Of a stretch of 28,682 nt of DNA, positions 1 to 25,936 are shown one piece after another. Each line of letters starts with the position of its first letter. The stretch's first letter is position 1. Source of the DNA: an uncultured Verrucomicrobiota bacterium (GTDB lineage Bacteria > Verrucomicrobiota > Kiritimatiellia > CAYTQP01 > CAZOLK01); assembly GCA_964580325.1 (NCBI GenBank), contig CAZOLK010000051.1:1-28682 (forward strand), read 5' to 3'. A program made the translations under genes and the position numbers. Under the pieces are notes generated by a model. It ran no database searches. It was given only the letters and a program-made list of their open reading frames with translations, and was not told where the DNA came from.

Positions 1-505
1 GATCCTGAACGTCGGCGGCCGGGCCCTCTGAGCGGCGGCGCGGGGGCGCCGGCCTGGGGCGTGATGCGGTCCGTCTGCGACTGATGCGTCGCATGGCGCC
101 AACACCGGCCGCGGCCTTGAATTTGCTGATGATCTCGTCTGCTACCCGATCCAGGTTGCTGCTGACCGTTCCGTCCGGTTTGGCGATATAATCGAACGCG
201 CCCAGTTCCAGCGCTTCGAACGTGGTTGATGCGCCGGTGTGGGTCAACGACGAAATCATGACCACCGGACAGATCTTCTCCTCGTTGACGATCTGTAGCA
301 CGCTCAACCCGTCCAGCTTGGGCATGTTGATGTCCAGCGATAACACATCCGGTTTCATTTCGCGGGTTTTAGTGACCGCATCCTCACCGTCGCGTGCATA
401 CCCGATCACCTCGAATGCGGGATCTTTTTCAAGCATTTTGATCAAAGTGCGGCGCATGAGCGCGGAATCATCCGCCACCAGAACTCTGATTTTTTTGTCA
501 GCCAT
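1..505 (-). CDS. cheB: CheB-like response regulator, 5' part only (receiver domain plus linker); gene runs off the left edge
   Basis: Minus-strand ATG at 503-505 follows an AT-rich leader. Translation reads MADKKIRVLVADDSALMRRTLIKMLEKDPAFEVIGYARDGEDAVTKTREMKPDVLSLDINMPKLDGLSVLQ...FDYIAKP. The receiver has the DD pair, the phospho-acceptor Asp in DINMPKLDG and the Lys in AKP. It is followed by a KFKAAAGVG linker resembling the CheB REC-to-methylesterase linker. No stop occurs before position 1. The methylesterase domain itself is not visible. Confidence 0.6.
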   Translation of the reverse strand, partial: MADKKIRVLVADDSALMRRTLIKMLEKDPAFEVIGYARDGEDAVTKTREMKPDVLSLDINMPKLDGLSVLQIVNEEKICPVVMISSLTHTGASTTFEALELGAFDYIAKPDGTVSSNLDRVADEIISKFKAAAGVGAMRRISRRRTASRPRPAPPRRRSEGPAADVQD

Positions 506-693: not shown

Positions 694-2670
694 TTATTCC
701 GCGCTGTCCTTATCTGGAATCTCTTTTTTGGCGGTTGACTTGGCACGTGATCGCGAGCCGTTCTTCCGAACCGGCTGTTTCGGCGGTTTGGCAGGTTCCG
801 CGGCCTTGGCTTCCGCCTTGGTGCGGGACTGGTGCAAAATGCTTTCCACATCCAGGAACACGATCATGCGCTTGCCGTCATCCACCTTCGCAATGCCGGA
901 AATGAAACGGTCCTTGCCATCGCCATCCACGGCTTTGGGCGGCGGCTCCACGTCGCGGTTGGCGATGTTCAACACCTGGCTCACGCTGTCTACACGCAGC
1001 CCGGTCTTGGTGCCGTCCAGGTCGACGATGATGATCCGTGTGCGATCATCCGTATCCACCGCGGGCATGGCAAAATGCGACCGCAGGTTGATCACCGGGA
1101 TCACCTCGCCGCGCAGGTTGGTCACACCCTCGACAAAGGCCGGAACGCGCGGAATGCGCGTGATTTTGGTGTAGCGGTCGATCTCGCGGATCTGCGCGAT
1201 CGGCACGCCAAACTCCTCCGCGCCCAGCTTGAACGTGACCAGCAACTGCTCGTCCATCTCGCGCTTCTTCTGCCCCTCTTCGTTCTTGTCAACGACCGCT
1301 ATGTCGCCATTGCCATTGAGCGATTCCTCGACGACCTGCATATCTTTCGACTGCAGCAACTTGCCCGAATCCAGAATCATGATCAACCGCTCGCCATCGT
1401 TGAGCTTGGCAATGCCGGCCAGCTCCGCGTTCTGACTATCGCTCAATTGCGGCGCCGGATCGGTGCACTCGTTGGGCACATTCAGCACTTCATTGACATG
1501 ATCCACGACCAGCCCCAGCAGCGTGCCGTTGGTGTCTACCACCACGATGCGCTGGTCTTCGGCAATAGCGCCGGCCACCATGTCTTCAAATCGCTGCTGG
1601 GTATGAATCACATCATCCAGCAGCGGCGCCACAACGCTCTTGAACGCACTGGCGGCTGCCTCGGCATCCTGGTTCTTGTTCAGAAAATCGGCCACGGTTT
1701 TCTGTGCTTTTTCGTTGCTGGCGCGCAGGTGCGTGATGCACTCGGTCAGCTCCTCGCTGGAACTACTCACCTGGCTCAACCAATGGCGCAGTTTTTCAGG
1801 CGCATGGGTCTTGGGCGCATCCACCTCGGGGTTCTCGCTCCAGGTGACCAGGGCCTCTTTCCACAAGCCGTAACCTTGGCGCAGACGCTCGCAGCAGGCG
1901 CGCAACTCATCAGCCAGCAGCGGCTGATTCATGACCAGGCGCAGATCCACGATGGGCAGCAGCTTGCCGCGCACCGTCAGCACGCCCAGGAGATAGCTGG
2001 GCGCTTCCGGAATCTGGCGTGCCGGTTTGACGCGCAGAATCTCGCGTACCTTGTCGATGGGGAACGCATACTCTTCGCGCGCCACCTTGAATGTCACCAT
2101 CTGGGTGATGTCCTGGGTGGCCTGGTCGCTGACTTCGTTGAGCTGTTCCTGAACCGCACTGCCTTCGGCGCGCGCCTGGGCTGCCTGGATCTGCTCCAGG
2201 TTAGCCTTGCACACTTCGACCGCGTTGAGCACAATGATGATCCGCTTGCCGTCCTCCAGCTTGACCACGCCGTCGAGATACTCTGAACTGACCTCGCCGA
2301 TCACGCTGGGCGGCGGCTCCATATTGGAGGCGGAGATGCGGTCGACCTGCCTGACCCGGTCCACGCGCAAGCCGGTTTTCTGACCGTGCAGGTCAATCAC
2401 CAGCAGACGCGTTCGATCCGTCTCATCCACGCGCTCCATACCGAAGCGCGTGCGCATGTCGACAATGGGCAAGACCGTACCGCGCAAGTTGGCCACTCCG
2501 TCCACATATTCCGGAGTCAAAGGAACACGGGCGATATCCGGAGGTCGGATAATCTCTTGGATATCCATGATATCAAACCCGAATTCTTCGTCCCCGAGCG
2601 AGAAGGAGACCAGTTGCATTTCGTCTTTCTGGGTCTTGACCTCGTCTAATTGCTCGGTTGTATTTTCCAT
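694..2670 (-). CDS. Multi-CheW scaffold protein with three CheW-like domains and a Lys/Ala/Pro-rich basic C-terminal tail
   Basis: The 658-aa ORF contains three segments of the form LVxFxLG(D/A)EE(F/Y)G(F/V)xI...IxxVPxxPxxVxGVxNLRGxV(L/I)P(I/V)(I/V)(D/N)(M/L)R, which matches the CheW fold signature. The middle domain is split by an insertion of about 110 aa. The C-terminus is AKAAEPAKPPKQPVRKNGSRSRAKSTAKKEIPDKDSAE. Confidence 0.85.
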   Translation of the reverse strand: MENTTEQLDEVKTQKDEMQLVSFSLGDEEFGFDIMDIQEIIRPPDIARVPLTPEYVDGVANLRGTVLPIVDMRTRFGMERVDETDRTRLLVIDLHGQKTGLRVDRVRQVDRISASNMEPPPSVIGEVSSEYLDGVVKLEDGKRIIIVLNAVEVCKANLEQIQAAQARAEGSAVQEQLNEVSDQATQDITQMVTFKVAREEYAFPIDKVREILRVKPARQIPEAPSYLLGVLTVRGKLLPIVDLRLVMNQPLLADELRACCERLRQGYGLWKEALVTWSENPEVDAPKTHAPEKLRHWLSQVSSSSEELTECITHLRASNEKAQKTVADFLNKNQDAEAAASAFKSVVAPLLDDVIHTQQRFEDMVAGAIAEDQRIVVVDTNGTLLGLVVDHVNEVLNVPNECTDPAPQLSDSQNAELAGIAKLNDGERLIMILDSGKLLQSKDMQVVEESLNGNGDIAVVDKNEEGQKKREMDEQLLVTFKLGAEEFGVPIAQIREIDRYTKITRIPRVPAFVEGVTNLRGEVIPVINLRSHFAMPAVDTDDRTRIIIVDLDGTKTGLRVDSVSQVLNIANRDVEPPPKAVDGDGKDRFISGIAKVDDGKRMIVFLDVESILHQSRTKAEAKAAEPAKPPKQPVRKNGSRSRAKSTAKKEIPDKDSAE

Positions 2671-2724
2671 TGCTATCCTTTTTGATTGATTGAAAGCGTT
2701 TCTTCAACGAGCAGGCCCAAGCGC

Positions 2725-4677
2725 TTAACCATTCTGCAACTCATCCGCCTGCGAAGCGATATCTTCGACTGCCTGGGCGATTTCCTGGGCTGCCTTGGAA
2801 CCCTCTTCGGAGGCCACGGCTGCCTCGGAGGAGGCGCGGTTCATCTGCTCGGCCGCGGAACTGATCTGCTCGCTCGCCTTGGCTGCCTCTTCCAATGCTT
2901 TCAATGATTCCTGAGCGCCCTGTTCAATCTCGCTGATGTTTTCGTCCAGGATAGAGATATCTTTGCCGATCGATTGCAGGTTGCTTGAGGAAATACGCGC
3001 ACGTTCTACTTCCTGGGCCGCGGTCTTGCCGGACAATTCGATATCGCCGGCCACCTTGTCGATCTGCAACTGGATCGCACGCACCATATCCTTGATCCGG
3101 TCCGCGTTCTCACTGCTCTCGTTGGACAGGGAGCGGATGTCGCCGGCCACGACAGAGAAACCGCGGCCGTATTCACCGGCGCGCGCTGCTTCCACGTTGC
3201 CGTTGACCGCGAGCATGTTGGTCTGAACCGTAACCATCACAATGGCGTCCACGATCTTGTCGATGGCCCGGGTCCGGTCACTCAATTCCTGTACGTTCCT
3301 AGCCGAACTGATCGAAGATTCCGCGGCATTGCCGATTTCTTCGATCAGGTTCTCCACATTCGTACAGTTGCGCTCCAGCAACTCGCGAATGGAATTCACC
3401 CGCTCCACGCCGACACGTGCGCGGTCGGACATACCCTTGGATGCGGCATTGAGTTTTTCACCCAGTTCCATAGAGGTCTGCGCAGATTTACCCTGTTGCG
3501 CCGCAGCCTTGCTGATCTGTTCGATGGCAGCCGCGATCTGGGTGGCGGCCGCACGCACTTCTTCGGCGTTGGCTGACAACTCCTCGGCGCTGGCAGCCAG
3601 TTCTTCGGCCGATTTCTGCGCGTTGGTCGACGTTTTCAGCGTTTCCGCCTGGTCGTTCAGCATGCTGGCTGCATCGCCCATTTCGGTGAACGCCTTGGCT
3701 TGCTCCTGGACCGCCTTCAACGCTTCGTTACCGGCCGATGACGCTTCTTCCGAGGCTGAGGCGATTTCCTCCGCGCCTTTCAGATAAGCGGCAGCCCCGG
3801 CATTGGCCTCTTCAGCATTTTGCAAAATTTCCTGGGTTCCGTCCATCACCTTGGCAAAATCGTCGACAATCTGGCTCAGGTCACTGTTGATGACCTTGGC
3901 TTTTTCGACTTCTTCCTGCCCTTTTTTGCCGGCAGCTTCGGCATCGTTGGCCACCACACGGACTTGCTCTTGGATCTCGTTGACCACGTCCTGGATGCCG
4001 CGCGCACTCTTCTCGCTGATCTCGGCCAGGTTGCGCACCTCGTCGGCCACCACCGCGAAACCTTTGCCATGCTCACCGGCGCGCGCCGCTTCAATGGCCG
4101 CGTTCAACGCCAGCAAGTTGGTCTGGTCCGCGATGCGCGCCACCGCGTTTACGATCTTGCCAATCTCGTCGGACTGGCGTTCCAGTTCCTGGATCATCTT
4201 GGCCGAGTCGATGTTAGCCTTGGCCGCGGTCTGCACCCCTGCGATCAAGCCTTCAATCTCGCTCGTCGTGGTTTTAATCAAATCCTGCAGTCGCTTGCAG
4301 TTCTTGATCGATGTTTCGGCGCGTTCATTGGCCACGGTAGCGGATCTATCGATCTGGTTGATCGCCGCCCTGGACTCTTCCGCGGCCGCGGAAGCCTGTT
4401 CCGCGCCTGATGCGATTTGCTGCATGGTTTTTTCAAGTTCATCGATAGCGCCCCCCGCCTGGGTCACCGCGCTGCTGACCTGCGAGGTGGCTACCGTTAA
4501 TTTCTCAGCCACGGCCTGGGCCCGGGCCAATGTACGTGCGCGAGCGCGCTCCTCGGCTTGACGCCGTGCGGCCAAGCGACCATCATCTCTTTCTTTCGGT
4601 TCATTAGAGCCGGATCCCACCTTCCCTCTTACGGGCTCATTTGGAGCGGCAAGTGTCTTCGTCATTACTTCCTCCAC
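2725..4677 (-). CDS. Soluble methyl-accepting chemotaxis protein with two tandem MCP signalling (MA) domains
   Basis: The 650-aa ORF has no hydrophobic transmembrane segment. Two highly conserved receptor hairpin-tip motifs are present: [35 protein letters not shown] and [36 protein letters not shown]. Each is embedded in a long A/E/Q-rich heptad coiled coil. Confidence 0.85.
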
Positions 4678-4771
4678 GGATTTGTTTTTTTCATTTCAAA
4701 CACACAGGCAGCCGTATCCATCATCCCAGCTCACCTGAACTGAAACTGCCTATTTCTGTGCAAGGTCTCCC

Positions 4772-4787
4772 TGCATAAAGCGTGCCG
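4772..4787 (-). promoter_or_regulatory. Candidate sigma54 (-24/-12) promoter for the MCP-CheW3-CheB operon
   Basis: Minus-strand sequence cGGCACG-CTTT-aTGCA matches the consensus TGGCACG-N4-TTGCA, including exact GG-N10-GC spacing. It lies about 95 nt upstream of the MCP ATG at 4677, and the divergent gene encodes a sigma54 activator. Confidence 0.55.
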
Positions 4788-4827
4788 ATATGCGATTCTG
4801 GCAACAAAAAAAATGCGCCACCCGGCA

Positions 4828-4880
4828 ACACGCCCTATCTCGCACATGAACACGCCCTATCTCGCACATGAACACGCCCT
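4828..4880. repeat. 22-bp tandem direct repeat (2.4 copies) in the divergent intergenic region; candidate enhancer/UAS
   Basis: The unit ACACGCCCTATCTCGCACATGA occupies 4828-4849 and is repeated exactly at 4850-4871, with a partial third copy at 4872-4880. It lies 40-100 bp upstream of the sigma54 promoter in minus-strand orientation. Confidence 0.8.
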
Positions 4881-5046
4881 TAGCCCGTTGTCATCGCATC
4901 ATGCCCAAAGCTGGTTACTTATTGACCAGGGTGGTTAGAAAAGTACCGGTCGGCATGCTTTTTGCCGGTTGGAAAATATACTTCTTTACGCTTTACATTT
5001 GTTTTTTGCACATTTTTGTGTTAATAAATATTTATGATAAATAAGT

Positions 5047-6660
5047 ATGAGTTCGGTTGTTTTTGTTTTTTTGCCGATTAGTGTTATGGAAACCGCAATA
5101 CTATTGATCGAAGGTAATCGTGTATCTGCGGCCATGTTTCGCGAAATGCTGGCTTCTGCGGAATACACGTTGACTTGGGTTCCTGACGGGTTACAGGGAT
5201 TGAAGTTGGCCCGGGAAAACAATTTTGACATGGTCTTCGTCGATATCCAACTGGCTGGCACGGATGGTCTCGAATTGCTGCGCAATCTGCGCCGCCATTG
5301 CCCCGCGTTGACGATCGTGGTTATTTCCGCCCATATCGACAGCGCAGCTATCATAACCGCCACCCGCTTTGGCGCCTACGATTACTTGGAAAAACCGATC
5401 GATCACGAGAACTTGATCCGACTGATTGATCGCGTGCAAGGCAAGATCGATGACCGATCTGACCTGGCTGTCGGCCTCGACGAACACAAATCCACGCTGG
5501 TTGGTCAGAGCCGAACCATGCGCACAGTATATAAGGAAATAGGCCGCATCGCAGCCCTGCCTGTCACGGTGCTGGTCAACGGTGAAACCGGAACTGGCAA
5601 AGAACTGGTGGCGCGCGCCATTCACGAATTCAGCGACCGCGCCGACCAACCTTTTGTGGCCATCAACTGCGCCGCGATCCCCGAATCGTTGCTGGCCAGT
5701 GAATTATTCGGTCATGAACGCGGCGCTTTTACCGGCGCTCATACCGCGCGCAAAGGGAAATTCGAACAGGCGGACGGCGGCACCCTGTTCCTGGACGAAA
5801 TCGGCGATATGGACCACCACCTGCAAGCGCGGATATTGCGTATCCTAGAGGATCGTTCGTTACAACGCCTCGGCGGCAATGGTCGTTCCACGCGCATCGA
5901 TGTGCGCATCATCTCCGCCACCCACCGCAACCTACCAACCATGATTCAAGACCATACGTTCCGCGAAGACCTCTACCATCGCCTGGCCGTCTCGGTCATT
6001 ACCCTGCCGCCATTGCGCGAGCGCCGCACCGATATCCCGCTATTGATCGATTTTTTTCTCAAGCGCTACATGAAGCAGTTCGGCATGCATTGCCCAGGCA
6101 TGGATTCGCGCGCAGTGGAATACCTGAGCCGCAAAACGTGGTCCGGCAATGTGCGCGAACTGGAAAACTACGTACGCAGCGCATTGGTACGTGCGCGCGG
6201 TTTGGCTATCACCTATGATTTGCTGCGCGAAATCGATGGCATCCTGGCAAAAAACAGCCCGAAACAGAAGATCACCGTTCCATCAGCCCTGCCCGCGGCT
6301 GAACAGACGGCTGAACCAGTCGAAACGCCTGCCATGACCGCACTGCCCATACCTGCAAAACCCCGGCAAAGCGAGCCTGCCCGTGACCCAGCCGATGAAA
6401 ATGAAGATTTATTAGATAGATGGGTACGAAAAATGCTTGATCAAGCTGAGCATGACCATGTACGGCGTAGAGCTATGGACTGCCTGGATCGTGTGCTGAT
6501 CCGCTATGCCATGCATGAGTCTCGGGGCAACCGCACTCGGGCCGCCAAGATGTTGGGCATCAACAGGCTAACTTTGCGCAAACGGCTCAGTGATCTGGGT
6601 ATCGAAGTGAAAAGCGTTTTGAAAGTACGTGGCATGGAACAGATGGTATTGGATATTTAA
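5047..6660 (+). CDS. Sigma54-dependent transcriptional activator (enhancer-binding protein of the NtrC family): receiver domain, AAA+ sigma54-interaction domain, C-terminal HTH
   Basis: The AAA+ domain carries the Walker A motif GETGTGKE and the GAFTGA motif (ELFGHERGAFTGAH). An N-terminal receiver domain contains DIQLAGTDG, and the C-terminal HTH reads RTRAAKMLGINRLTLRKRL. The start could instead be the METAILLIEG Met at 5086. Confidence 0.9.
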   Translation: MSSVVFVFLPISVMETAILLIEGNRVSAAMFREMLASAEYTLTWVPDGLQGLKLARENNFDMVFVDIQLAGTDGLELLRNLRRHCPALTIVVISAHIDSAAIITATRFGAYDYLEKPIDHENLIRLIDRVQGKIDDRSDLAVGLDEHKSTLVGQSRTMRTVYKEIGRIAALPVTVLVNGETGTGKELVARAIHEFSDRADQPFVAINCAAIPESLLASELFGHERGAFTGAHTARKGKFEQADGGTLFLDEIGDMDHHLQARILRILEDRSLQRLGGNGRSTRIDVRIISATHRNLPTMIQDHTFREDLYHRLAVSVITLPPLRERRTDIPLLIDFFLKRYMKQFGMHCPGMDSRAVEYLSRKTWSGNVRELENYVRSALVRARGLAITYDLLREIDGILAKNSPKQKITVPSALPAAEQTAEPVETPAMTALPIPAKPRQSEPARDPADENEDLLDRWVRKMLDQAEHDHVRRRAMDCLDRVLIRYAMHESRGNRTRAAKMLGINRLTLRKRLSDLGIEVKSVLKVRGMEQMVLDI

Positions 6661-10741: not shown

Positions 10742-11589
10742 GCTTTCCGATAATAATACTTATGCTTTACGCGAAAATCAAGATCCGGGACATAGTTGGT
10801 GATCGGATAAGCCAGGCTGAGAAACAGGTAACCGCCCGGCGCCAGGCTCTCGTACAACGCACGGATGACCCGTTGCTGCGCATCCATGCTGAAATAGAAA
10901 AGCACATTCTTACAGAAGACAAAGTCAAAATTGCGCATGGCGCGCAAACTGGCAAAATCGGTCAGGTTCAAACAAGAGAACTGGACCATCTGCTTGACGA
11001 TCGGTTTGACCGCATAACCTTTGACGCCGTAATCGCAATACCGGTAGCTGAACGATTCGGGCAGCGTGCGCTCCAGCTCGCGGCTGTACACGCCTTGCCG
11101 GGCGATCTCCAGGTAATGGCGCGAGATGTCCGTGGCCGCAATCATGTAGCGCCACGTCTCGTTCCGCCCTGCGTCAAGCATCAGCATGGCCAGCGAATAG
11201 GGCTCTTCGCCCGTGGAACAGCCGGCGGACCAGGCCTTCAGCAACTGGCTGCCACGAACACGCTTGGTCTGCTTGACTTCAGGCAGACACTCCTCGACAA
11301 ACACTTCCAGTTGACGCTGATCCCGAAAAAAAAAGGTTTCGTTGACGATCAGCAACTCCAGGAAATACTGGAACTCACCCTCGAGTCGCTGGTCCGCGGC
11401 CAGCAATTGATAGTATTCGTCAAAGGTCAGATCAAGTGCGCTCATGCGCTTTTGCAGACTGCTGGACAGGCCATATTGTTGCTTGGCCGCCATCTCGATG
11501 CCGGTGCGCATCTGTACCAGGGCGCCGACGGTTTCGATATCTTCAGCAACAGGTTTACGATAAGGCATAATATATTCCTTTGGAAACAA
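10738..11589 (-). CDS. cheR: CheR-type chemoreceptor glutamate methyltransferase
   Basis: The motifs ETFFFRDQ, the SAM-binding WSAGCSTGEEPYSLAM and DFVFCKNVLFYF are CheR hallmarks. Confidence 0.9.
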   Translation of the reverse strand: MFPKEYIMPYRKPVAEDIETVGALVQMRTGIEMAAKQQYGLSSSLQKRMSALDLTFDEYYQLLAADQRLEGEFQYFLELLIVNETFFFRDQRQLEVFVEECLPEVKQTKRVRGSQLLKAWSAGCSTGEEPYSLAMLMLDAGRNETWRYMIAATDISRHYLEIARQGVYSRELERTLPESFSYRYCDYGVKGYAVKPIVKQMVQFSCLNLTDFASLRAMRNFDFVFCKNVLFYFSMDAQQRVIRALYESLAPGGYLFLSLAYPITNYVPDLDFRVKHKYYYRKA

Positions 11590-11852: not shown

Positions 11853-11947
11853 TTAAATAAATAACCTTTTCGTTCTTTTTTTATCATGCTAAAACCAAAG
11901 GATCATATGGAAGTTGTCATCATATGTTTTGGGAATAAGCGGATGTG

Positions 11948-11997
<50 letters not shown>

Positions 11998-12042
11998 CAT
12001 TTTTCCCACGCTTTATTTCACCAAATGGACGGACTTGAGGAC

Positions 12043-13218
12043 ATGATGAAGAATACGGAATTATACAGACAGCTTGTTGCACATCACCGCCGGCAATACC
12101 AGTGCGACCCTTATCTAGTGGCCTATGCGCCCGGTCGCGTTGAGGTACTGGGCAATCATACCGACTACAACGAGGGCTTCGTGCTCTCCGCTGCCATCGA
12201 TACCGGCATTTTATTCGCGCTTTCCGAATCGGTTCGGGACCATTGCCGGCTTTTCTCGGTCAACATGAACGAACAGGTGACGTTTACCCCCGAATCCATT
12301 GAGCCGGACCTCCAGGCCGCGGCAGGCTGGAGCAATTACAGCAAAGGGGTTTTTAAACTGATCCAGGAGCGCCGGAAGCCGGATCGCTGTTTTGACGCGA
12401 CTTTGTGCAGCAACCTGGCCATGGGCGCCGGTTTGTCCAGTTCGGCGGCCATTGAAATATCCACGGCTCTGGCCTTGAGCACGTTTTATGGTTTGGACAT
12501 CGATCTCCTCGATCTAGCGAAAATCGGTCAGCGCGCGGAGCGCGAGTACGCAGGTGTCAGTTGCGGGCTGCTCGATCAACTCACCAGCTTGTTCGGTCGG
12601 CACAATGCCCTGGTGTACACCGATTTTCGCAGCCTGAACGTGAAACCCGTGAACATGCCGGAGCAGATCGTGTTCCTGCTTTGCAACACCAAGGTCAAGC
12701 ATAGTCTGGTGGATTCGGAGTACAATGAACGCCGCGCTTCATGCGAAAAGGCGGCCGCATTCTTCAATCAAGCGCGCGACCGCGAGATCAAGGCCCTGCG
12801 TGACGTGACTTGGGCGGAATGGGAAGCGCACCAAAACGCTATGGATCCCATGCTGGCCAAGCGCGCCGCTCATGTGATCGGTGAAAACGAGCGCGTGCGC
12901 AAAGCGCTCGATCTGCTCGAACACGATGACATGAAAGCGTTCGGTGAGTTGATGTTCGCCTCGCACGAAAGTTCGATTACGTATTTCGAAAACTCATGCC
13001 CTGAGCTGGACTTCGTGGTCTCATGCGCCCGTGACATACTGGGCGTGCTGGGCGCACGCCTGTCCGGCGGCGGTTTCGGCGGCAGTGCAATCCTGCTGCT
13101 GGAAAAACAGAACCTGGACAGCGTAGCCATGGCTCTGGAAAAGGCTTACGTGGAAAAGATCGGTCATCCCGCGGAAATCCGCACCGTACTACCTTCGGAC
13201 GGCGCCCGCATGGTTTGA
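12043..13218 (+). CDS. galK: Galactokinase (GHMP kinase family)
   Basis: The GalK signature PGRVEVLGNHTDYNEGFV and the GHMP ATP loop MGAGLSSSAA are present. The start was taken at the ATGATG preceded by GAGGA. The longer ORF-track N-terminus (from 11914) overlaps the tRNA-like fragment and is probably not translated. Confidence 0.85.
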   Translation: MMKNTELYRQLVAHHRRQYQCDPYLVAYAPGRVEVLGNHTDYNEGFVLSAAIDTGILFALSESVRDHCRLFSVNMNEQVTFTPESIEPDLQAAAGWSNYSKGVFKLIQERRKPDRCFDATLCSNLAMGAGLSSSAAIEISTALALSTFYGLDIDLLDLAKIGQRAEREYAGVSCGLLDQLTSLFGRHNALVYTDFRSLNVKPVNMPEQIVFLLCNTKVKHSLVDSEYNERRASCEKAAAFFNQARDREIKALRDVTWAEWEAHQNAMDPMLAKRAAHVIGENERVRKALDLLEHDDMKAFGELMFASHESSITYFENSCPELDFVVSCARDILGVLGARLSGGGFGGSAILLLEKQNLDSVAMALEKAYVEKIGHPAEIRTVLPSDGARMV

Positions 13219-13348
13219 ACACGCCGCTATGCCGTATTTCACCGTATCAACACGGCTAGACGGCTAGACCGGAAACATCACGTGGCGACGTCATGATGTA
13301 CATGATTTGTGCGGGGGATGAGTCGATGGAATCGATGGATTCTGATAG

Positions 13349-14641
13349 CTAGCGTAATTCATCGCGCACGAACTGGTAGAGCGCTTCCTGGCCAAAGTTG
13401 CCGGACTTGAGGACCAGCAGCAGGTTTTCACGGTCCGTGGGGAAGCAATAGGGAACGCCCGGCGCCAAGGGCAGGCCCACTTCAACGGCGCGGATGTCCA
13501 GCTTGCGGCAGACCGCACCCGAGGTTTCACCGCCGGCCACAATCAGCCGCCCGACCGCGCCGCGCTCCACCAGAGTTCCGGCTATGCCGGCCAGCGTATC
13601 GGCAATGCGCTCGCCGGTCCGGACACTGTTCAAACCCTGATCCGCGCCCATTTGCTGTATGCGCTCGATGCCGGCCCGGTCCATGGACGGGGCCTGGACC
13701 AGCGCACCGCCAGCCTGGTTCAACGCCGCTTCTGCCAGGTCCAGAACGTTGGCTGGATCATAGGTTCCTTGCACAATGGCCGGGATATCCAGGGTTAACT
13801 TTTTAAAGTCATGGGCTTCGGCATGTTGGGTCTGGCGCGCCGAGGTGGGTGACTGGCTGCCGGAAACGACCAACGTGGCGCGCGGCATAGCTTGCAGGCG
13901 CTTGCTGAAATCGAGCGGCTTGGTCTGGCACCCGTGGGCCGCGGGCAATGCTGCGGTGATGCCCGAGCCGCCGCTGATCAGGGGCCAGCCCCTGACCGCC
14001 ATAGCAATCCGGTCCAGGTCGTCCTGACAGACCGCGTCGGTCACCAGCCAGACCGCGCCTGCATCGACCAATTGCTCCAGTTTCTGGCCCAGGTCCGGCC
14101 CGCGCACCGTTTCCAGCGGAACCAGCTCTACCTTGCGGTCGGTCTGATATTGCAGCCAGCGCACCAGGTTGGCGTCGGTCATGGGGTTGAGCGGATGGTT
14201 GCGCAGAGCGGATTCGGACAGCAGTTTCCGGCCGACAAATAAATGGCCCTGGTACACCGTGCGTCCATTGACCACCAGGGCCGGGCAGACGATCGAAGCC
14301 CTGGCCAGCGGCAGTGCGCCCAGCGCCGCGTCAAGGGTCGGCCCGATATTGCCTTCGCGTGTGGAATCGAATGTCGAGCAGTACTTGATCTGGATTTGTC
14401 CCACGCCCAGGTCGCGCAGCAAACTAACGGCGCGCGATGTAGCCGCGGCAGCCAGCTCGGGCGCAACCGAGCGGTTCTGAGTTCCGATGACCACGGCCTG
14501 AAACGCGTCCAGCGCAACCGGCGGATGGGCCAGGTCATTTTCGTTCATGATCAACAGCGTGCGTGCACCTCGCTCGGTCAGCATGCCGGCCGCATCCGTG
14601 GCGCCTGTATTGTCGTCGGCGATAATGCCCCATTTCAGCAT
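13349..14641 (-). CDS. Four-carbon acid sugar kinase family protein (DUF1537; OtnK/YgbK-like 3-oxo-tetronate kinase family)
   Basis: The N-terminus GIIADDNTGATD and the C-terminal nucleotide-binding region VAGGETSGAV match the DUF1537 kinase family. Confidence 0.75.
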   Translation of the reverse strand: MLKWGIIADDNTGATDAAGMLTERGARTLLIMNENDLAHPPVALDAFQAVVIGTQNRSVAPELAAAATSRAVSLLRDLGVGQIQIKYCSTFDSTREGNIGPTLDAALGALPLARASIVCPALVVNGRTVYQGHLFVGRKLLSESALRNHPLNPMTDANLVRWLQYQTDRKVELVPLETVRGPDLGQKLEQLVDAGAVWLVTDAVCQDDLDRIAMAVRGWPLISGGSGITAALPAAHGCQTKPLDFSKRLQAMPRATLVVSGSQSPTSARQTQHAEAHDFKKLTLDIPAIVQGTYDPANVLDLAEAALNQAGGALVQAPSMDRAGIERIQQMGADQGLNSVRTGERIADTLAGIAGTLVERGAVGRLIVAGGETSGAVCRKLDIRAVEVGLPLAPGVPYCFPTDRENLLLVLKSGNFGQEALYQFVRDELR

Positions 14642-14656
14642 GGACTTGTCCTCACC

Positions 14657-15292
14657 TTACATTTGACGGTTGAGCAATTCGTTGACTTGCGCTTCGTTCA
14701 GCGCTTCACCGCCCTGGCGCACCCAGAGCCACTGGCGGCAGTTTTCCTCCAGCTCCTCCAGAATGCCCAGCGCCTTGCGCCCGGTCGGCCCCATAACCAG
14801 TACGCCATGGTTGCGCAACAACAGGGCACGGTGCTGTTGGACGCCTTGGGCAATAACCTGAGCCAGTTCCGCACTGCCTGGCGGGTGATAGGCCAGCACA
14901 GGGACGTGTCCGGCACGCATGACGAACTGCGGCGTGACCGACGGCAGCCGGTCGCCGACAGCCAGAAAAGTCGATGCGGCTATGGCGTGGCTCGGATGCG
15001 CATGCACCACACAGCGTACATCCGGACGCTGACGCAGAATCGCCAGGTGCCCGCCCTTCTCCTTGCTGGGACGCCGGTCATTGAGCGCGCAGCCATCGAG
15101 CGTCAACAGGGACAGGTTATCTATACGGATATCGGCCATACCCACGCCGGTCGGCGTAACCGCGCAGCGCCCGTCTTCGCCCGGCAGGCGGATGCTGGCG
15201 TTGCCGCTGGTCGACGTGCCCAGCCCACTGCGCGCCAGCGCGTGGCAGACATCCACCAACTCGCGCAAGGCTTGTTCGTCGCCCGTGTTCAT
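14657..15292 (-). CDS. Class II aldolase/adducin-family protein (OtnC/FucA-like)
   Basis: The motifs GNASIR, PSKEKGGH and VVHAHPSHA are typical of class II aldolases. The start was taken at MNTGDEQ, which overlaps the upstream stop by ATGA. The longer ORF-track N-terminus is unlikely. Confidence 0.7.
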   Translation of the reverse strand: MNTGDEQALRELVDVCHALARSGLGTSTSGNASIRLPGEDGRCAVTPTGVGMADIRIDNLSLLTLDGCALNDRRPSKEKGGHLAILRQRPDVRCVVHAHPSHAIAASTFLAVGDRLPSVTPQFVMRAGHVPVLAYHPPGSAELAQVIAQGVQQHRALLLRNHGVLVMGPTGRKALGILEELEENCRQWLWVRQGGEALNEAQVNELLNRQM

Positions 15293-15978
15293 TCCGTATC
15301 CCTGAAAGACGCGGCCCGCAGCTCGCGCAAAGTCGCGGCCAGGCGCTGCATGGCCGGTTGCGGACTGGAATAGATCGGGACCGCCCGAGTATCCTCGGGC
15401 AATTGTTCGACGATCCGCGCCATGGAAGCCTGAGCCAGGCATACGGCATCCACATCGCGCATCAGGTTTTCCAGCGCAGCCTTGACCAATCGGTCGTGGG
15501 CAGCCATGTCACCGGTGAACAGGGCGTCGTACGCACCTTCAACCAGGCACTCGACCACGACGGTATCGCGCCCTTCTTCGTCGGCCAGGTCACGGGTCAA
15601 CGCAACACTGGGCCGCAACGTAGCCGGATTGGTGGCGATCAAGCCGTTGCGCGCATGCTGTTGCACAGCGCTGCGCAGCATGGGATCGTCGATGCAGAGC
15701 ACCGGGATCGACGTCATCTGCCGCGCCAGCGGGGCGCATGGCGAAAGCGACGAGCAGGTGAGTTGAACCACACCGGCGCCGGCATCGGCCGCGGCCGTGA
15801 TGTGGTCGCACACCCGCCGGGTAATGGCCGGAGTCAAGCCGCCGGCCGCGAGCAGGCGCTGGATCAGGCTGTCGTCAGCCACATGGAACAGCTTGACGTC
15901 CGGAATGGTTTCGCACGCCAACTGATCGAACGCGTCACAGACCTTCCAGAGCGAATGCAACAGGCAAACCTTGATCAT
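15289..15978 (-). CDS. Asp/Glu/hydantoin racemase-family protein
   Basis: The fold-level resemblance is to the Asp/Glu racemase / arylmalonate decarboxylase superfamily (MIKVCLLHS..., paired Cys-containing segments). The start was taken at the Met that overlaps the upstream stop by ATGA. Confidence 0.5.
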   Translation of the reverse strand: MIKVCLLHSLWKVCDAFDQLACETIPDVKLFHVADDSLIQRLLAAGGLTPAITRRVCDHITAAADAGAGVVQLTCSSLSPCAPLARQMTSIPVLCIDDPMLRSAVQQHARNGLIATNPATLRPSVALTRDLADEEGRDTVVVECLVEGAYDALFTGDMAAHDRLVKAALENLMRDVDAVCLAQASMARIVEQLPEDTRAVPIYSSPQPAMQRLAATLRELRAASFRDTE

Positions 15979-16616
15979 GAAGCGTCTCCCCCGGGCTCCT
16001 GCTTGGGCAGCATGATTTCGATAAAGCCTTCGGTCTGGTCCAGGGTGAAGGGCATGAGCTGGGTGCGGAACGGTACATAGCCGTAGCAATCGCCGCTCTT
16101 GCGAATCTGAGCAGCTTCATAGGCAGTGTTGACGCGACGCTTGTACTCGTCCTTGACATCCTCGAACACAGCAGTCAGGCCGTTGCCAATGTAGTTGTCG
16201 GCTGTTTTGGCGTGGAGGTCGTAAGCGGTGCGGGTCAGCGCGCCTACGGTCTGGGCATAGAGCCAGTAGCGCAAGGTCTCCTGCCATGCTCCGCGCTGTA
16301 CCATGACCCAGGGCGTGACCTGGATCAGCATGGTGACGGCATAGTTCAACTCGCCAGTCCAGGCGCCGATTTGATCGTAGCCGAGGGCCTTATCCAGGAT
16401 GACCCGGGCCAGGGCCTGGGCCGCGTTGGTCGGCTCGCTAGTATCGCCGCCGTCCATGGCCGCGATGGTGTCGGCGACCTCCATAAAGGCCTTGCGGTAA
16501 TGGGTCGATATTTCAGCGGTCGCATTTTCAGCGATCAGCGCATCCGCGATTTCATTGGCCAATGCTTTCACTTTTTCATCAATATCCGGCCTGTTGTCGT
16601 GTGGTATATAGGGCAT
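15975..16616 (-). CDS. Hypothetical 213-aa protein, family not recognised, translationally coupled to the racemase-family gene
   Basis: The ORF is intact with RBS AAGGA and overlaps the downstream gene by ATGA. It has no signal peptide and no motif I can assign. Confidence 0.5.
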   Translation of the reverse strand: MPYIPHDNRPDIDEKVKALANEIADALIAENATAEISTHYRKAFMEVADTIAAMDGGDTSEPTNAAQALARVILDKALGYDQIGAWTGELNYAVTMLIQVTPWVMVQRGAWQETLRYWLYAQTVGALTRTAYDLHAKTADNYIGNGLTAVFEDVKDEYKRRVNTAYEAAQIRKSGDCYGYVPFRTQLMPFTLDQTEGFIEIMLPKQEPGGDAS

Positions 16617-16642
16617 ATCGTTTTCCTTACTATTCTACTTTT

Positions 16643-19316
16643 TTATTCTACTTTTTTACTATTCACGCGCTCCAGATCCTCTACGGCCAGGCCGCAGAGC
16701 AACGGCTCGCCTGCATGCGGAACCAACTCCACGCGCACGCCCTGGTTGTCGCGGGTGCGAACCACGACATGCTCCATGACCGCATTGCGCTCACCGTAGC
16801 GCTCGGCCAGGTCCAGATCCTTCATCACGAGCCGGCCATTGATCTGGATATCGAACACGCGCCGGCCTTCGGGATCGGCGCCAGTCTGCTCGTTAGGATC
16901 GCGGCGGCAGGCGCGCGGAAACGGTTCGGTCAGACACAAGGAAACCCGATACAGGCTGTCCGGCAGGTCGATCCGGTAGTGGCGCAAGCCGACCAGGAAG
17001 GTCTGAAAAACGGGCAACAGCTCAGTGCGGCGGATATTATGGCGCACGCCTTCGCGGATCCCGTGCCAGGCAGCCATGCTTTTCCAGACACGGTAAAAGC
17101 GTCCCTCCAGGTGGCCATAGGCGCCAGCAGCGTATGGGCGGTCCGGTGCCCATATATCGCCGGTGAGCGGGTCGTGGAAAAAGGTGCGCGACTGGCCCAG
17201 GTTGATGCACAGCTTGCGGGGCCGCTCGATCACGTTCAGTTCAAGATGATCCGGCAAGGCCTCGCACGCCGGGTCACGGCTCAACGCAAGCAGGCTGTTG
17301 CGGCCGGCGGTCAGCGGTACGTTCCAGACCGCGCACTTGTTCTCGATCCGGCGAACGCCCAGCGACTTGCCGTTATGGATCAATTCGACCTGTACGCAAT
17401 TACTGTAGACCTGGATCGGTTCCCCGGACGCCTCAGGATCGAGCCGCAAACGCTGGGGCCAATCGTGTTCGGCAATGTGGACCATGGGTTCCGGGTTCCA
17501 GTGCGCCTTGTAGAGGTAGAAGGTATCCTTGCGCCGCCGGTCGCCGGTCAACAAACCCTTGTTGTTGATGTGCTTCATGCTGTCGCCAATGGAATTGCGC
17601 TGGAAATCGACCAGAGTCCAAATAAACATGCCGGCGATCCAGGGCCGGGTTTCGACAGCGGCCAGGTAGGCCTTGTGAAAGCGGTCGGCATGCTCGGGGG
17701 TCATGTCGTATAGGGTCGGTTCGTGGGTATGAACGCGCGTATCCGTACCAGCGCCAAACTCAGCGATCAGGTAGGGCCGGCGCGGAGCGTACGTACGTGT
17801 CTGGGCCAGAATTTCCGGCAGACGCTCGATGGACCCGTGGTACCAGCCGAAATAAAGGTTCCAGCCGTTGAAATCGTTGATTTCCGTCAACCCGGCCTCG
17901 GCGTTCCATTGCGGATTGGGATCGGTATGGAAATCGTTGGCGGTCAGCCGATACGGGTCCAGTTCCTTGATCAGCGTCTCCATGCCGGCCATCAACTCGC
18001 GCACTTCGTGAAAATGGCGCTGGAGCCGGCCCGGGTGCTGGGGTTTGGGCCAGAACCAATCGGCGTCGCCCAACGGTTCGCAGGCGTAACCCCACATAAT
18101 CACCGCGGGGTGGTTGTAGAGCTGGAGCACCATCTCGCGCAACGTCTGATGGTATCGGTCGCGAAACTCGGGCGCCATGGAGACACGGTCCATAATCACG
18201 GATTTGACCCAGCACATCACACCGAGGCGATCACAGGAATCGTAGATTTCGCCGGCCAGCGGGTAATGGCCGCGCATGGCATTGGCGCCCAGCGCTTTGA
18301 TTTCACATACATCGTTGTGCAGCACCTCATAGGGCACGGCATAACCCAGGCCAGCGTAATCCTGATGCCGACCGATGCCGCGTAGGAAACAGCGCTCGCC
18401 ATTGAGGAAAAAGCCCTGTTCCACATCGACGCTGAACGCACGAAACCCGAGCGGAGTGGACAGTTCATCCAGCACATCGCCTGTTTCGCTGTCCAGGATG
18501 CGATGCAGCACGCAATAGACATAGGGATGATCGGGCGACCAGGGGTGAGGGTCGGGCACGGAGTCGGATACGGCGCAGGTCAGGATTTGGGCGCCGGCTT
18601 CGAGGACCAGGGTTTGCTGCAGAGCCGTCACGCTTTTGCCCTCTGCGTCGCACACTTCGCTCCGCACGACCAGGGTGCGATCAACCGCGCTTTCATTGAC
18701 CAGCCGGGCGCGTACGCGCACCGGTGCATGACCAGGCGCAAAGTCGGGCGTATCGACCAGCACGCCGCACGATCCGCAATGCATCATATCAAAATGAACC
18801 AAGCCGGTACGCACCAGGTGGACATAGCGGTACAGGCCGCCGAAATGGCCCAGGTCGCCGCCCAGCGGGGCCACCTCTTCGTTGTGTGCATTGCTCAAAC
18901 GCACGTTGAGCAGGTTGGCGTCGCCGACATGGGCCAGGTGGGTGATATCGACGCAGAACCCGGTGAAACCACCGTAATGGCGACCGGCCTCGCCGCGGTT
19001 GAGATAAACCACGGCATCCTGGTTGGCGCCGTCAAAATAGAGGTAAAGTTTGCCTTCCAGGTCCTCGGGTTGCAGGTGCAGTTCCTTTTCGTACCAAGCT
19101 TCACCACGGTAATACGCGAGCCTGGACCCGCCACCATAGCCGGCAAAAGCGCCACATGCGTCATCGCCGGATGGTGGTGCATCGCGCTCATCGGCGATCA
19201 GGTCGCGGGCGTTCCAGGTATGCGGCAGATTGACGATCTCCCAGGCAGGCGGATCGCGATCCGCTTTGGCAAAACGCCAGCCGCTGTTCAAGGTCTGCTT
19301 ACTTCTCACATTCGGC
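16643..19316 (-). CDS. Glycoside hydrolase family 2 protein (beta-galactosidase/beta-glucuronidase-like), cytoplasmic, with an extra C-terminal domain
   Basis: The GH2 N-terminal sugar-binding region reads LNSGWRFAKAD...WEIVNLPHTWNARDL. The central TIM-barrel region contains NAMRGHYP and MWGYACEP. The start was taken at MPNVRSK, which has GAGGAG 8 nt upstream; the 53-codon N-terminal extension in the ORF track is unlikely. Confidence 0.8.
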
Positions 19317-19919
19317 ATCGATAACTCCTCAAGCTGGTTACAACCTAATAGCCCACAGAAAAATATCATGCCATTTTGAGGGCCAACTATCCCATCCAGC
19401 GGCGTTGCAAAAACTCGAAATATTCCAATATTCCTGCGTTTTTGCGCCTTGTTGGACTGGGCAACTTGACTCCACAAAATTCATCTTATTTTCCCGTAAA
19501 CCATAAAGTCACCATCATGCGTCAACAATTCACAAACTTCTACCGCGATTCTGCAGTTTTTTGCGCAGAATACGCAAATTCTTAAATTGCGGATTTTATC
19601 TTGCCACCCGCGACTTGACATACGGCTGATGCCTATTGCACTTCTACCAGCTTCGATGCGCAGGGACGCCTGCTGCTTTCGCTTGAGGTGGACGGCGCTT
19701 TCCAACTCTGCCGCATGGACCACCGCAACGGTAACGACCTGGTTGGCGTAAACCTGGAAAACGAGACCCATGTTTTATTCAGCCCGCCGGAAGCTTCTCA
19801 CACGATGGACAACTGGTGCTGTTCACTTCGGATTGCGAAGGATCGCCGAGTCCGTTTTTGGTGGAGCTTTAGGGGAACCCCACTTGTTATCGGCCAGGGC
19901 ACTGATATTTTTCATTGCC

Positions 19920-20267: not shown

Positions 20268-21056
20268 CTAAACTTCAAGCACGCAGATGGCCTTGGCATG
20301 ACGGATGTGCAGAGCCATGCTTTCGCTGATGAAGAATTCGAATTCCGTGGCTGATGGGCCGATATAGCCGATGCTCATGTCCTGACCGACCACAATCATG
20401 ACATAGGGTTTGCCGGTGGCGACCAACACGCCGCCTTTTTCCAGGTAAGGAGCCTTGACAATGCCGTCGGTCACCATGGTTTTCAGGTGTTCCAACTCGC
20501 TGGGGCCATTGCTGTACAGGCGATAGAGCTTGTTGTACAGGTTTGGCGCCAGGGCCAGGGCGAACGGGCCGAAAACGCCGGTTTCATCCATGGCGGTCAG
20601 GGCCTTGATCACGTCTTCGGACGCCATGCCAACGCTTTTCCAGTCCTGGCACTTGATCTTTTGCACGCCCTTGACTTTGAGCAGGCCCGGCGCATTGTCC
20701 GTACCTTTGAAAATCAGCATTTCTTCCCTGGTCGCAGCCTCACGGGTGGCTTTGGCCACGGCAGAGGCCGGGAAATTGAGGCCATCGTGCTCAAAAGCAG
20801 CGATATCGCGTTGATTCAGGCTGAAATTGACCCGAAATTCGATCAAGGGCAGAAAGCCGGGTACGCTGAGGCCGTCTTCGCCGATTTTGTCGGCCAAAGG
20901 TACACCTTTGACGCCCACACCGAGCGGTCCTTGCAGATGCAACAGCTTGCGACCGGTCAGAAGGGCGTTGGCGTTTTGGATCATGATCTTATCCATACGC
21001 TCCCAGATGGCAGAATCAAAGGGCGCGTCGTCGCGAAACAGATATTTATTCGACAT
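20268..21056 (-). CDS. Family 1 encapsulin shell protein (linocin M18-like, HK97 fold)
   Basis: The 262-aa protein resembles the T. maritima encapsulin along its length, including the conserved GQDMSIGY segment (GQDLSIGY in T. maritima). Confidence 0.8.
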   Translation of the reverse strand: MSNKYLFRDDAPFDSAIWERMDKIMIQNANALLTGRKLLHLQGPLGVGVKGVPLADKIGEDGLSVPGFLPLIEFRVNFSLNQRDIAAFEHDGLNFPASAVAKATREAATREEMLIFKGTDNAPGLLKVKGVQKIKCQDWKSVGMASEDVIKALTAMDETGVFGPFALALAPNLYNKLYRLYSNGPSELEHLKTMVTDGIVKAPYLEKGGVLVATGKPYVMIVVGQDMSIGYIGPSATEFEFFISESMALHIRHAKAICVLEV

Positions 21057-21082
21057 GTAAATTCTCCGGAATAGGTTGTGAT

Positions 21083-21475
21083 TTATTTAAGGGAACCGAT
21101 GGTGGGCGAAGTGCCGCCATCGTCGTCGATTTCTTGGCCCGCTTCGGCTTCCACGCTTTCCGCAGCGGCGGCACCTGTGAGTTTAGCGATCTCTTCCTCG
21201 ACTTCCGCGGCGCCTTCTTTCAGGTATTGCTCCTCGTCGCCGGTCAAATATTGCAGCAGCCGCATGAATTCACCAGCATGCACGCGCTCTTCGTTGGCCA
21301 CGTCGCGCAGAACCTCTTTGGCCACCGGATCGTCCGTGGCGTCGGCCTGGGCAGTGTACAAGTGAACAGCCTCGTGCTCCGCGGCAAGGGATATGCGAAC
21401 CGCACGGATCAACTCTTCCTTCGTCATTTTCCTTTCCGGAACCATACCGGAAAAAGGGTTTGAAAACTCAGCCAT
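21083..21475 (-). CDS. Encapsulated ferritin-like cargo protein (EncFtn) with C-terminal encapsulin targeting peptide
   Basis: The EncFtn-like di-iron motifs are AAEHEAVHLY and ERVHAGEF. The C-terminus GGTSPTIGSLK matches the encapsulin cargo-loading peptide consensus. The start was taken at MAEFSNPF, which has GAGGAG upstream. The gene lies immediately upstream of the shell gene. Confidence 0.75.
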   Translation of the reverse strand: MAEFSNPFSGMVPERKMTKEELIRAVRISLAAEHEAVHLYTAQADATDDPVAKEVLRDVANEERVHAGEFMRLLQYLTGDEEQYLKEGAAEVEEEIAKLTGAAAAESVEAEAGQEIDDDGGTSPTIGSLK

Positions 21476-21730
21476 GTTATCGCTCCTCATGTTAGCAGGT
21501 CCATTGAAGCAATGTAAAACAACACAGCCTTGCCCCACAATAAAAAAAGCAGTTTTCCTTGAATCGGGCGTAACAGGAGGGAGCAGAAGGGAGGGTGCAG
21601 GGTGAAACGTGACCATCGAGGCGGTCGCGCACGGCACGCTACGCTACGTCAGAACTCGGACATCATCATGGTCTGTGAAATCCGCAATTGCAGAGCGCGA
21701 ATTGCGCGACATGGCCATAGCCAAGGGCAG

Positions 21731-25740: not shown

Positions 25741-25870
25741 GATCAGGGTTGCTCCTAAGAAAGATTTAAACGCCAGCTAGAAATAGGCCCGATTACATAT
25801 TATGTCAACGCTGTTCTTATATTCCTGCAAATTCGCGTCTTTCCGACTGGGCGACTTACCTCTACAATGG

Positions 25871-25936
25871 CGAAGTTGTTTCTGCGCGAAGTTGTTTCTG
25901 CGCACGCCCTAAGTAAGCGTCAAACAACCTTTGACG
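25871..25936. promoter_or_regulatory. 16-bp exact tandem repeat (CGAAGTTGTTTCTGCG x2, 25871-25902) followed by the 7-5-7 palindrome CGTCAAAcaaccTTTGACG (25918-25936), upstream of the beta-helix gene
   Basis: Both motifs are read directly from the divergent intergenic region between the phosphatase gene and the gene starting at 26002. Confidence 0.5.

Follow-up and report, generated by a model that had tools for sequence, protein, structure and literature searches.

What switches on the chemoreceptor operon at one end of this contig, and does the tandem repeat that lies in front of it take part? The stretch analysed here (hereafter the window) is a single contig of 28,682 nucleotides, CAZOLK010000051.1, from an uncultured Verrucomicrobiota bacterium, and the best matches of its proteins are in Verrucomicrobiota. 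The control region in question is the 420-bp intergenic sequence at 4666–5085, which lies between two divergent operons: on the minus strand, genes for a methyl-accepting chemotaxis protein (MCP), a four-CheW-domain protein (4xCheW) and a CheB-like protein, and on the plus strand, an operon that begins with the gene for an NtrC-family enhancer-binding protein (the activator). We propose that the MCP operon has a sigma-54 promoter, that the divergently encoded activator would serve this promoter from a cluster of dyad-symmetric sites acting as the enhancer, and that a perfect 22-bp tandem array between promoter and dyads is a young duplication within the spacer; taken as a whole, we give this proposal an even chance of being right. 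The elements of the control region are as follows.

4772–4787, minus strand: predicted sigma-54 −24/−12 promoter, cGGCACGctttaTGCA / CGGCACGCTTTATGCA (read from 4787 to 4772), assigned by its consensus match and its co-occurrence with the activator
4807–4814, no strand assigned: A8/T8 tract between array and promoter, possibly an intrinsic bend (presumed function)
4827–4880, no strand assigned: perfect tandem array, unit AACACGCCCTATCTCGCACATG, 2.45 copies (Tandem Repeats Finder)
4912–4928, no strand assigned: dyad B, TGGTTACTTATTGACCA, with core GGTTACTTATTGACC at 4913–4927; candidate activator site at about −159 from the MCP start
4932–4948, no strand assigned: dyad C, TGGTTAGAAAAGTACCG; candidate activator site whose left half, TGGTTA, is shared with dyad B, 20 bp away
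4951–4967, plus strand: dyad A, CGGCATGCTTTTTGCCG, of the GGCAA-N5-TTGCC type; positionally conserved in all three members of the window clade (defined below)

The probable sigma-54 promoter and the divergent activator

Is the MCP operon preceded by a genuine sigma-54 promoter? The preliminary description of this DNA had pointed to a minus-strand sequence with the exact −24/−12 spacing, and three lines of evidence bear this out. First, its GG (4786/4785) and GC (4774/4773) are canonically spaced, and 10 of the 12 specified positions of the consensus TGGCACG-N4-TTGCW are matched. Second, GGCACG-N5-TGCW occurs only once in the window, where 0.32 occurrences are expected over both strands of 28.7 kb; the looser pattern GGCAY-N6-TGC has three matches, two of which lie within the control region and face apart. 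Third, the element recurs at related loci that share the neighbouring gene. We took 56 MCP/4xCheW loci from species-representative genomes, and among these a divergent activator lies next to the MCP gene only in L042 (the same place as L002) and L045; a contig from ENA, L060, provides a further case. The window, L042 and L060 alone constitute the window clade. Most MCP/4xCheW loci carry neither the activator nor a sigma-54 promoter. An equivalent promoter is found within 300 bp upstream of the MCP gene at all four activator-linked loci, versus three of the 47 loci without an adjacent activator (Fisher p = 1.4e-4). The distance from the element to the ATG is 106–126 nt at the activator-linked loci, L045 being shorter under a different start-codon estimate. 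In the window, about 107 nt separate the promoter GC from the MCP ATG, and transcription of the operon is predicted to start near 4761, leaving a 5′ untranslated region of about 96 nt. From this match and its recurrence, the MCP operon very probably has a genuine sigma-54 promoter at 4772–4787. That promoter and activator occur together across loci is the best available evidence that the element is functional and served by the neighbouring activator.

Two loci from 'delta proteobacterium' metagenome-assembled genomes (MAGs), L022 (at about 5780) and L034 (at about 5760), also show strong sigma-54 promoter matches upstream of the MCP gene (TGGCACGGCAACTGCT and CGGCACGACACCTGCT); neither has an activator within 8 kb, and the activator may be encoded elsewhere. 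Two loci that encode relatives of the L045 CheW protein, L063 and L065, have no adjacent activator.

The immediate surroundings of the promoter hold several smaller features. A 5-bp inverted repeat, GCATA-N11-TATGC (4773–4793), overlaps it and is either a repressor site or a product of chance. Runs of T shortly upstream of the promoter, comparable to the A8/T8 tract, are also present in L042, L060 and L045, as read from the sequence. In the window, a weak GC hairpin (4815–4831) with three G-C pairs precedes the T8 run on the minus strand; hairpin and T8 run were considered together as a minus-strand terminator, but the structure is weak and nothing is known to be transcribed into it, and the tract was treated as an A-tract. 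No site for integration host factor (IHF) was found between enhancer and promoter at one mismatch or fewer.

The divergent gene had been described as encoding a sigma-54 activator, and its product proves to be complete in this respect, with a receiver, an AAA+ domain bearing GAFTGA and a C-terminal HTH_8 domain. The Pfam families Response_reg, Sigma54_activat, AAA_lid_14 and HTH_8 were all recognised, and the GAFTGA and Walker motifs are visible in the alignment. By its domain content, the protein is a sigma-54-competent NtrC-class enhancer-binding protein. It was also considered as an orthologue of NtrC (NR-I) itself, and here it scored 445 bits against the TIGR01818 cut-off of 558.6, which makes it a member of the family only. 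Its helix-turn-helix (HTH), RGNRTRAAKMLGINRLTLRKRL, is nearly identical to that of Escherichia coli Fis through both helices, including the recognition helix, and Fis is the closest match among solved structures. Because activators of this family all have a Fis-like HTH, the site specificity of the protein is not confidently readable from this segment; we take the likeness as a lead on site geometry (G/C at ±7 and an AT-rich centre), not as proof of specificity.

Three further observations concern the activator. The linker between its AAA+ domain and HTH (residues ~390–455; window 6250–6450) is rich in Pro, Ala and Glu and several dozen residues longer than in three relatives, which might give an unusual reach between the DNA sites and the ATPase ring. 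In L060, the HTH of the activator stops after GINRI and continues with unrelated residues (L060 4179–4260, at the 3′ end of the gene), probably as a result of a frameshift in a long-read assembly or of a decaying gene. As regards close relatives, the activator and the 4xCheW protein are singletons in the collections searched, the nearest proteins being 44–62% identical.

Candidate activator sites upstream of the array

Where might the activator bind? Three consecutive 17-bp dyads of the form YGG-N11-CCR start at 4912, 4932 and 4951, about 20 bp apart, with centres at −159 to −198, and they lie 30–90 bp further upstream than the array. The cluster thus combines the attributes looked for in an enhancer, namely dyad symmetry, several adjacent sites and a position 100–200 bp upstream of the promoter. 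No other site in the 28.7-kb window matches the 15-bp Fis consensus GNTYAAAWTTTRANC (PMC6907758) as well as the core of dyad B, GGTTACTTATTGACC, which agrees with it at 10 of 13 specified positions. In the four activator-linked control regions, nine YGG-N11-CCR dyads were counted against 2.4 expected, and N = 11 stands out among the spacings from 5 to 17; across 46 control regions, the count was 28 against 23 expected, with no enrichment.

Dyad A is the element with positional conservation. At one mismatch or fewer, GGCAA-N5-TTGCC was found in four of 52 regions upstream of MCP genes, and three of these four are all the members of the window clade, in which it lies 295–339 nt upstream of the ATG; the chance of a match is 0.02–0.03 per region, so that 0.84 matches are expected over the 52 regions. 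In L060, a perfect palindrome of this type, TGGCAAATTAGTTGCCA, is separated by 169 bp from the MCP promoter (179 bp for the corresponding distance in the window), and L042 has the element CGGCAATTTAGTTGGCG at a similar distance. Read one way, the L042 element is without the GC, and read the other way it is without the GG. It cannot, therefore, be a sigma-54 promoter, and it is conserved as a dyad, as a dimeric activator site would be. The dyads at 4912–4967 fit a Fis-type HTH dimer better than the array does, and from these patterns the docking sites of the activator are most likely the three candidate dyads, with the conserved 4951–4967 element as their anchor.

In an Acidobacteriia MAG (L020, 439–578), three related GGCAAT..ATTGCC palindromes occur upstream of the MCP gene without a separate sigma-54 promoter; that contig ends 868 bp upstream. 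An exact search of the JGI metagenomes and IMG/VR with dyad B and its flank returned no match.

The anchor element raises a question of its own. Positions 4951–4966 on the plus strand, CGGCATGCTTTTTGCC, also read as a sigma-54-like −24/−12 element that faces the activator gene; it overlaps dyad A, has the palindromic form CGGCA-N7-TGCCG and, together with the MCP promoter, makes up a 19-nt inverted repeat. Might this be a working promoter for the activator operon, providing autoregulation, besides or instead of being a dyad bound by the activator? Its GG and GC are canonically spaced, nine of 12 consensus positions are matched, it lies 120 nt from the activator ATG, and the equivalent element of L060 lies 46 nt from the activator ATG there. 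However, the element is equally palindromic in the window and in L060, and a promoter needs no palindrome; the base after its GC is C rather than A/T; and L042 has an equivalent that could not work as a promoter, L045 none at all. In addition, such a promoter would have dyads B and C at −57 and −37 from its start, too close for looping activation. We consider a promoter at this position possible, with the evidence leaning against it.

The 22-bp array: spacer duplication or enhancer?

What, then, is the array? The earlier claim of 22-bp tandem repeats is borne out by Tandem Repeats Finder, which reported 4827–4880 with period 22, 2.5 copies, 100% matches and a score of 108, the top-scoring array in the window, and by a second repeat search that agrees; the accompanying claim of exactly two helical turns is not, as 22 bp corresponds to about 2.1 turns. 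An alternative reading of the repeat is the 10-mer AACACGCCCT present three times at 22-bp spacing. Its described position, 40–100 bp upstream of the promoter and between it and the divergent activator gene, is likewise accurate: the array lies 41–94 bp upstream of the −24 GG, or at about −66 to −119 from the predicted start at ~4761, and so puts at least two units in the range of 70–200 bp upstream of the promoter in which an enhancer would be sought. An independent Logan assembly contig (L001, run SRR7048222) begins inside the array, and its first 31 bases end at the first base past the array. If Logan contigs are built with k = 31, as we presume, this start is the break that a tandem array causes in a short-k-mer graph, and the array is then present in the reads rather than being an artefact of the MAG assembly.

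The array appears to be confined to this one place. In shuffled windows, the 22-mer had no match at three mismatches or fewer; within the window, the unit and its halves do not recur above chance; an exact search of the JGI metagenomes and IMG/VR did not find the 22-mer; and the control regions of L042, L060 and L045 contain no counterpart beyond chance similarity. There is no dyad symmetry or inverted repeat within 4827–4880, no degenerate older copy flanks it, and the Fis-consensus score across it is poor. No Rfam match was obtained, and only short open reading frames (29–41 aa) cross it.

Long-selected binding sites usually keep only their contact bases. The 100% identity over 54 bp therefore suggests a recent duplication rather than a set of long-selected sites. 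In addition, the contig holds two further perfect intergenic tandem duplications, GCGAAGTTGTTTCTGC (16 bp × 2.1, 25870–25903) and TATTCTACTTTTT (13 bp × 2.2, 16631–16658), and small intergenic duplications are thus not rare in this genome. Considering these features, the most likely account is that the array arose recently by slipped-strand duplication within the spacer that loops, perhaps starting from a 10-bp direct repeat with copies 22 bp apart, and that it is not the primary enhancer.

The relatives differ in this part of the control region. L060 has a two-copy direct repeat with a period of 40–44 bp and an 18-nt perfect core, CGCCTCGAATACTCGTTG, between the conserved dyad and the promoter, which is the position of the array. 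In L042 and L045, promoter and activator are present but there is no comparable repeat. A CGCC...CTCG motif common to the window unit and the L060 repeat core was considered and set aside; its spacing is off by 3 nt and the resemblance is no greater than chance. L042, whose control region is much longer, contains a 50-nt inverted repeat (78% complementary) at 5361–5466, and a 42-bp × 2.7 tandem repeat is found at 11289–11403 of the same locus.

The proposed mechanism would then run as follows. Sigma-54 RNA polymerase would bind 4772–4787 and form a closed complex; the activator, phosphorylated by the neighbouring kinases or through a relay by a histidine phosphotransfer (Hpt) protein, would assemble on the dyads at 4912–4967 (about −159 to −198), loop across the spacer with its A8 tract (4807–4814) and its array, and open the promoter. 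Expression of the operon would accordingly be rpoN-dependent, the rpoN gene itself being absent from the 28.7-kb window, a single contig. Each array unit would add about two helical turns, roughly keeping the phase of the enhancer, and for this reason the array may be tolerated as a neutral insertion. The activator would thereby act as an output regulator with control over the genes for receptor and scaffold in the very chemosensory pathway to which it belongs.

Several considerations weigh against this proposal. The p-values for the dyads are optimistic, because the patterns were noticed first and tested afterwards. Plain pairwise similarity among the four control regions is not significant for any element, the dyads included. 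Binding of the dyads by the activator is a prediction, and Fis-like HTHs across the activator family recognise different sequences. Two independent neutral duplications in the same place, in the window and in L060, would be a coincidence, which hints at a function for repeats in the spacer. Activators that use direct repeats do exist, Nla28 being reported as one (PMC9765219). Finally, if 4951–4966 is a real promoter, the array lies near midway between two divergent promoters, at −66/−119 from one predicted start and −97/−150 from the other, the classic place of a shared enhancer.

This last point underlies a rival explanation, in which the 22-bp units are head-to-tail activator sites that form a central enhancer for divergent promoters at 4772–4787 and 4951–4966, the latter giving positive autoregulation. 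Besides the position of the array and the Nla28 precedent for direct repeats, the 22-bp spacing, with which successive sites would point in nearly the same direction around the helix, is consistent with this explanation; L060 has a similar layout, in which two sigma-54-like elements 169 bp apart flank the two-copy direct repeat; and, on inspection, the unit junctions yield a G-N13-C 15-mer, GCACATGAACACGCC, with one good Fis-type half-site. On the other hand, the array is without the dyad symmetry that dyads A to C display and scores poorly on the Fis consensus, for which dyad B is the best site in the window; its perfect identity and the lack of decayed copies speak of recency; no motif is common to the array and the L060 repeat or any other locus; L042 and L045 manage with promoter and activator and no such repeat; and the second 'promoter' has C after its GC and corresponds to no promoter in L042. 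The earlier suggestion that the repeats are the enhancer of the activator is not upheld by these results, which include the missing counterpart at all three related loci, and we regard a shared enhancer in the array as unlikely. A more elaborate form of the idea, in which slippage would vary the copy number of such an enhancer and so provide a heritable dial on chemoreceptor, scaffold and activator, with the L060 design having evolved independently from an unrelated repeat, seems to us distinctly improbable.

The array might instead be functional in another way, as a binding site for some other protein (an architectural protein, one associated with the nucleoid, or a second regulator) or as a spacer of variable copy number that tunes the distance between enhancer and promoter. 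Both the window and L060 have tandem duplications in the same spacer, with periods (22 bp and 40–44 bp) near whole helical turns, and the lack of an IHF-like site may mean that another aid to bending is needed. However, the neighbouring genes encode kinases, receivers, CheW and CheR proteins and no candidate DNA-binding protein, the two repeats lack a common motif, and the spacers of the three clade members (173, 162 and 191 bp) show no common phase; we consider a function of this kind improbable. An artefact or unrelated element (an assembly error, plasmid iterons or a replication origin, a mobile-element remnant, or a gene for a small RNA or peptide) can be given almost no weight: apart from the superficial likeness to iterons of 22-bp direct repeats beside an AT-rich stretch (4975–5085), the independent assembly breaks at the array boundary, as expected of a repeat in the reads, no replication initiator occurs among the 20 predicted proteins scanned, there is no DnaA box and only 2.45 units are present as compared with the usual four or more, Rfam gave no match, and no copies exist elsewhere in the window, the metagenomes or the viral contigs searched.

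The chemosensory locus and its counterparts in known systems

The promoter and the activator belong to a clustered chemosensory gene set, in which genes for an MCP, a 4xCheW protein, CheB, CheR, a CheW-receiver protein and kinases accompany that of the NtrC-class activator. The genes that flank the control region are listed here.

2725–4665, minus strand: cytoplasmic MCP of 646 aa, with its ATG at 4665 preceded by a GGAGGA ribosome-binding site; first gene after the promoter
694–2670, minus strand: 4xCheW protein; second gene of the operon
1–505, minus strand: CheB-like receiver protein, of which only the N-terminal part is encoded before the contig ends; third gene of the operon
5086–6660, plus strand: NtrC-family enhancer-binding protein (the activator), with a receiver, an AAA+ domain with GAFTGA, a long Pro/Ala/Glu-rich linker and a Fis-like HTH_8

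On the plus strand, the activator gene is followed by genes for a receiver-Hpt protein, a CheW-receiver protein and two kinases, and then by a convergent CheR gene. No CheA was seen in the window, the MCP operon running off the contig end. The MCP has no database record under either start codon. The MCP and 4xCheW gene pair (694–4665 in the window; loci L004–L059) shows identities of 55–73% for the MCP and 42–62% for the CheW protein, which is unusually high for chemosensory proteins; the MAGs that carry it are labelled as Acidobacteriota (mostly Bryobacterales), Verrucomicrobiota, Riflebacteria, 'delta proteobacterium' and others.

Elsewhere in the window, an encapsulin shell gene (Linocin_M18) adjoins a rubrerythrin/EncFtn-like gene (20268–21637), likely an iron-storage nanocompartment pair. 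An unrelated block for sugar use (11914–19477) encodes a galactokinase, a four-carbon acid sugar kinase-type protein, a class II aldolase, a racemase and a large glycosidase of the GH2 family with a malectin domain.

How does this locus compare with known systems? NtrC activates promoters of the glnAp2 type from upstream dimer sites by DNA looping. The locus resembles these enterobacterial promoters in its −24/−12 promoter and in the receiver-AAA+-HTH activator, which here is encoded next door, as well as in its several candidate dyad sites of about 17 bp located 100–200 bp upstream, from which we propose looping by analogy. It differs from them in that a chemosensory operon takes the place of nitrogen genes as the target; the candidate sites are GG-N11-CC dyads with AT-rich centres, as opposed to TGCACC-N5-GGTGCA; no IHF-like site is present; and the activator falls below the cut-off of the NtrC equivalog family. 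Since nothing categorically new is required, the layout belongs to known enhancer-dependent sigma-54 regulation; it is, overall, an ordinary regulatory layout that leaves the current understanding of such regulation unchallenged.

The other two comparisons concern the mode of DNA binding. With E. coli Fis, the activator shares a nearly identical HTH, and dyad B resembles a Fis site at the 10 positions noted above; Fis, however, is a small nucleoid protein and not an activator domain. Nla28 of Myxococcus xanthus recognises tandem, imperfect 8-bp direct-repeat half-sites at many promoters (PMC9765219). The units found here are, in contrast, 22 bp long, identical and unique to one spot, and they bear no sequence resemblance to those half-sites. 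Here the locus also offers a general caution: a perfect tandem array close to a promoter may have arisen recently by duplication of spacer DNA, and the real operator may be a less conspicuous, conserved palindrome.

The closest counterpart in terms of circuitry is the Che3-CrdA system of M. xanthus, a chemosensory pathway whose output is an NtrC homologue in the place of CheY (PMC3147164). As in that system, MCP, CheW, CheB and CheR genes are clustered here with an NtrC-family factor that is the likely output of the pathway. In contrast to Che3-CrdA, the lineage is a different one, the MCP is cytoplasmic and the CheW protein has four domains, and the activator appears to drive the MCP operon itself. 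If the proposed model is correct, this locus would provide a clean example, in a poorly studied lineage, of a chemotaxis-like pathway that feeds back on the transcription of its own receptor and scaffold through a sigma-54 activator, and one in which, compared with Che3-CrdA, the target promoter would be identifiable from the sequence.

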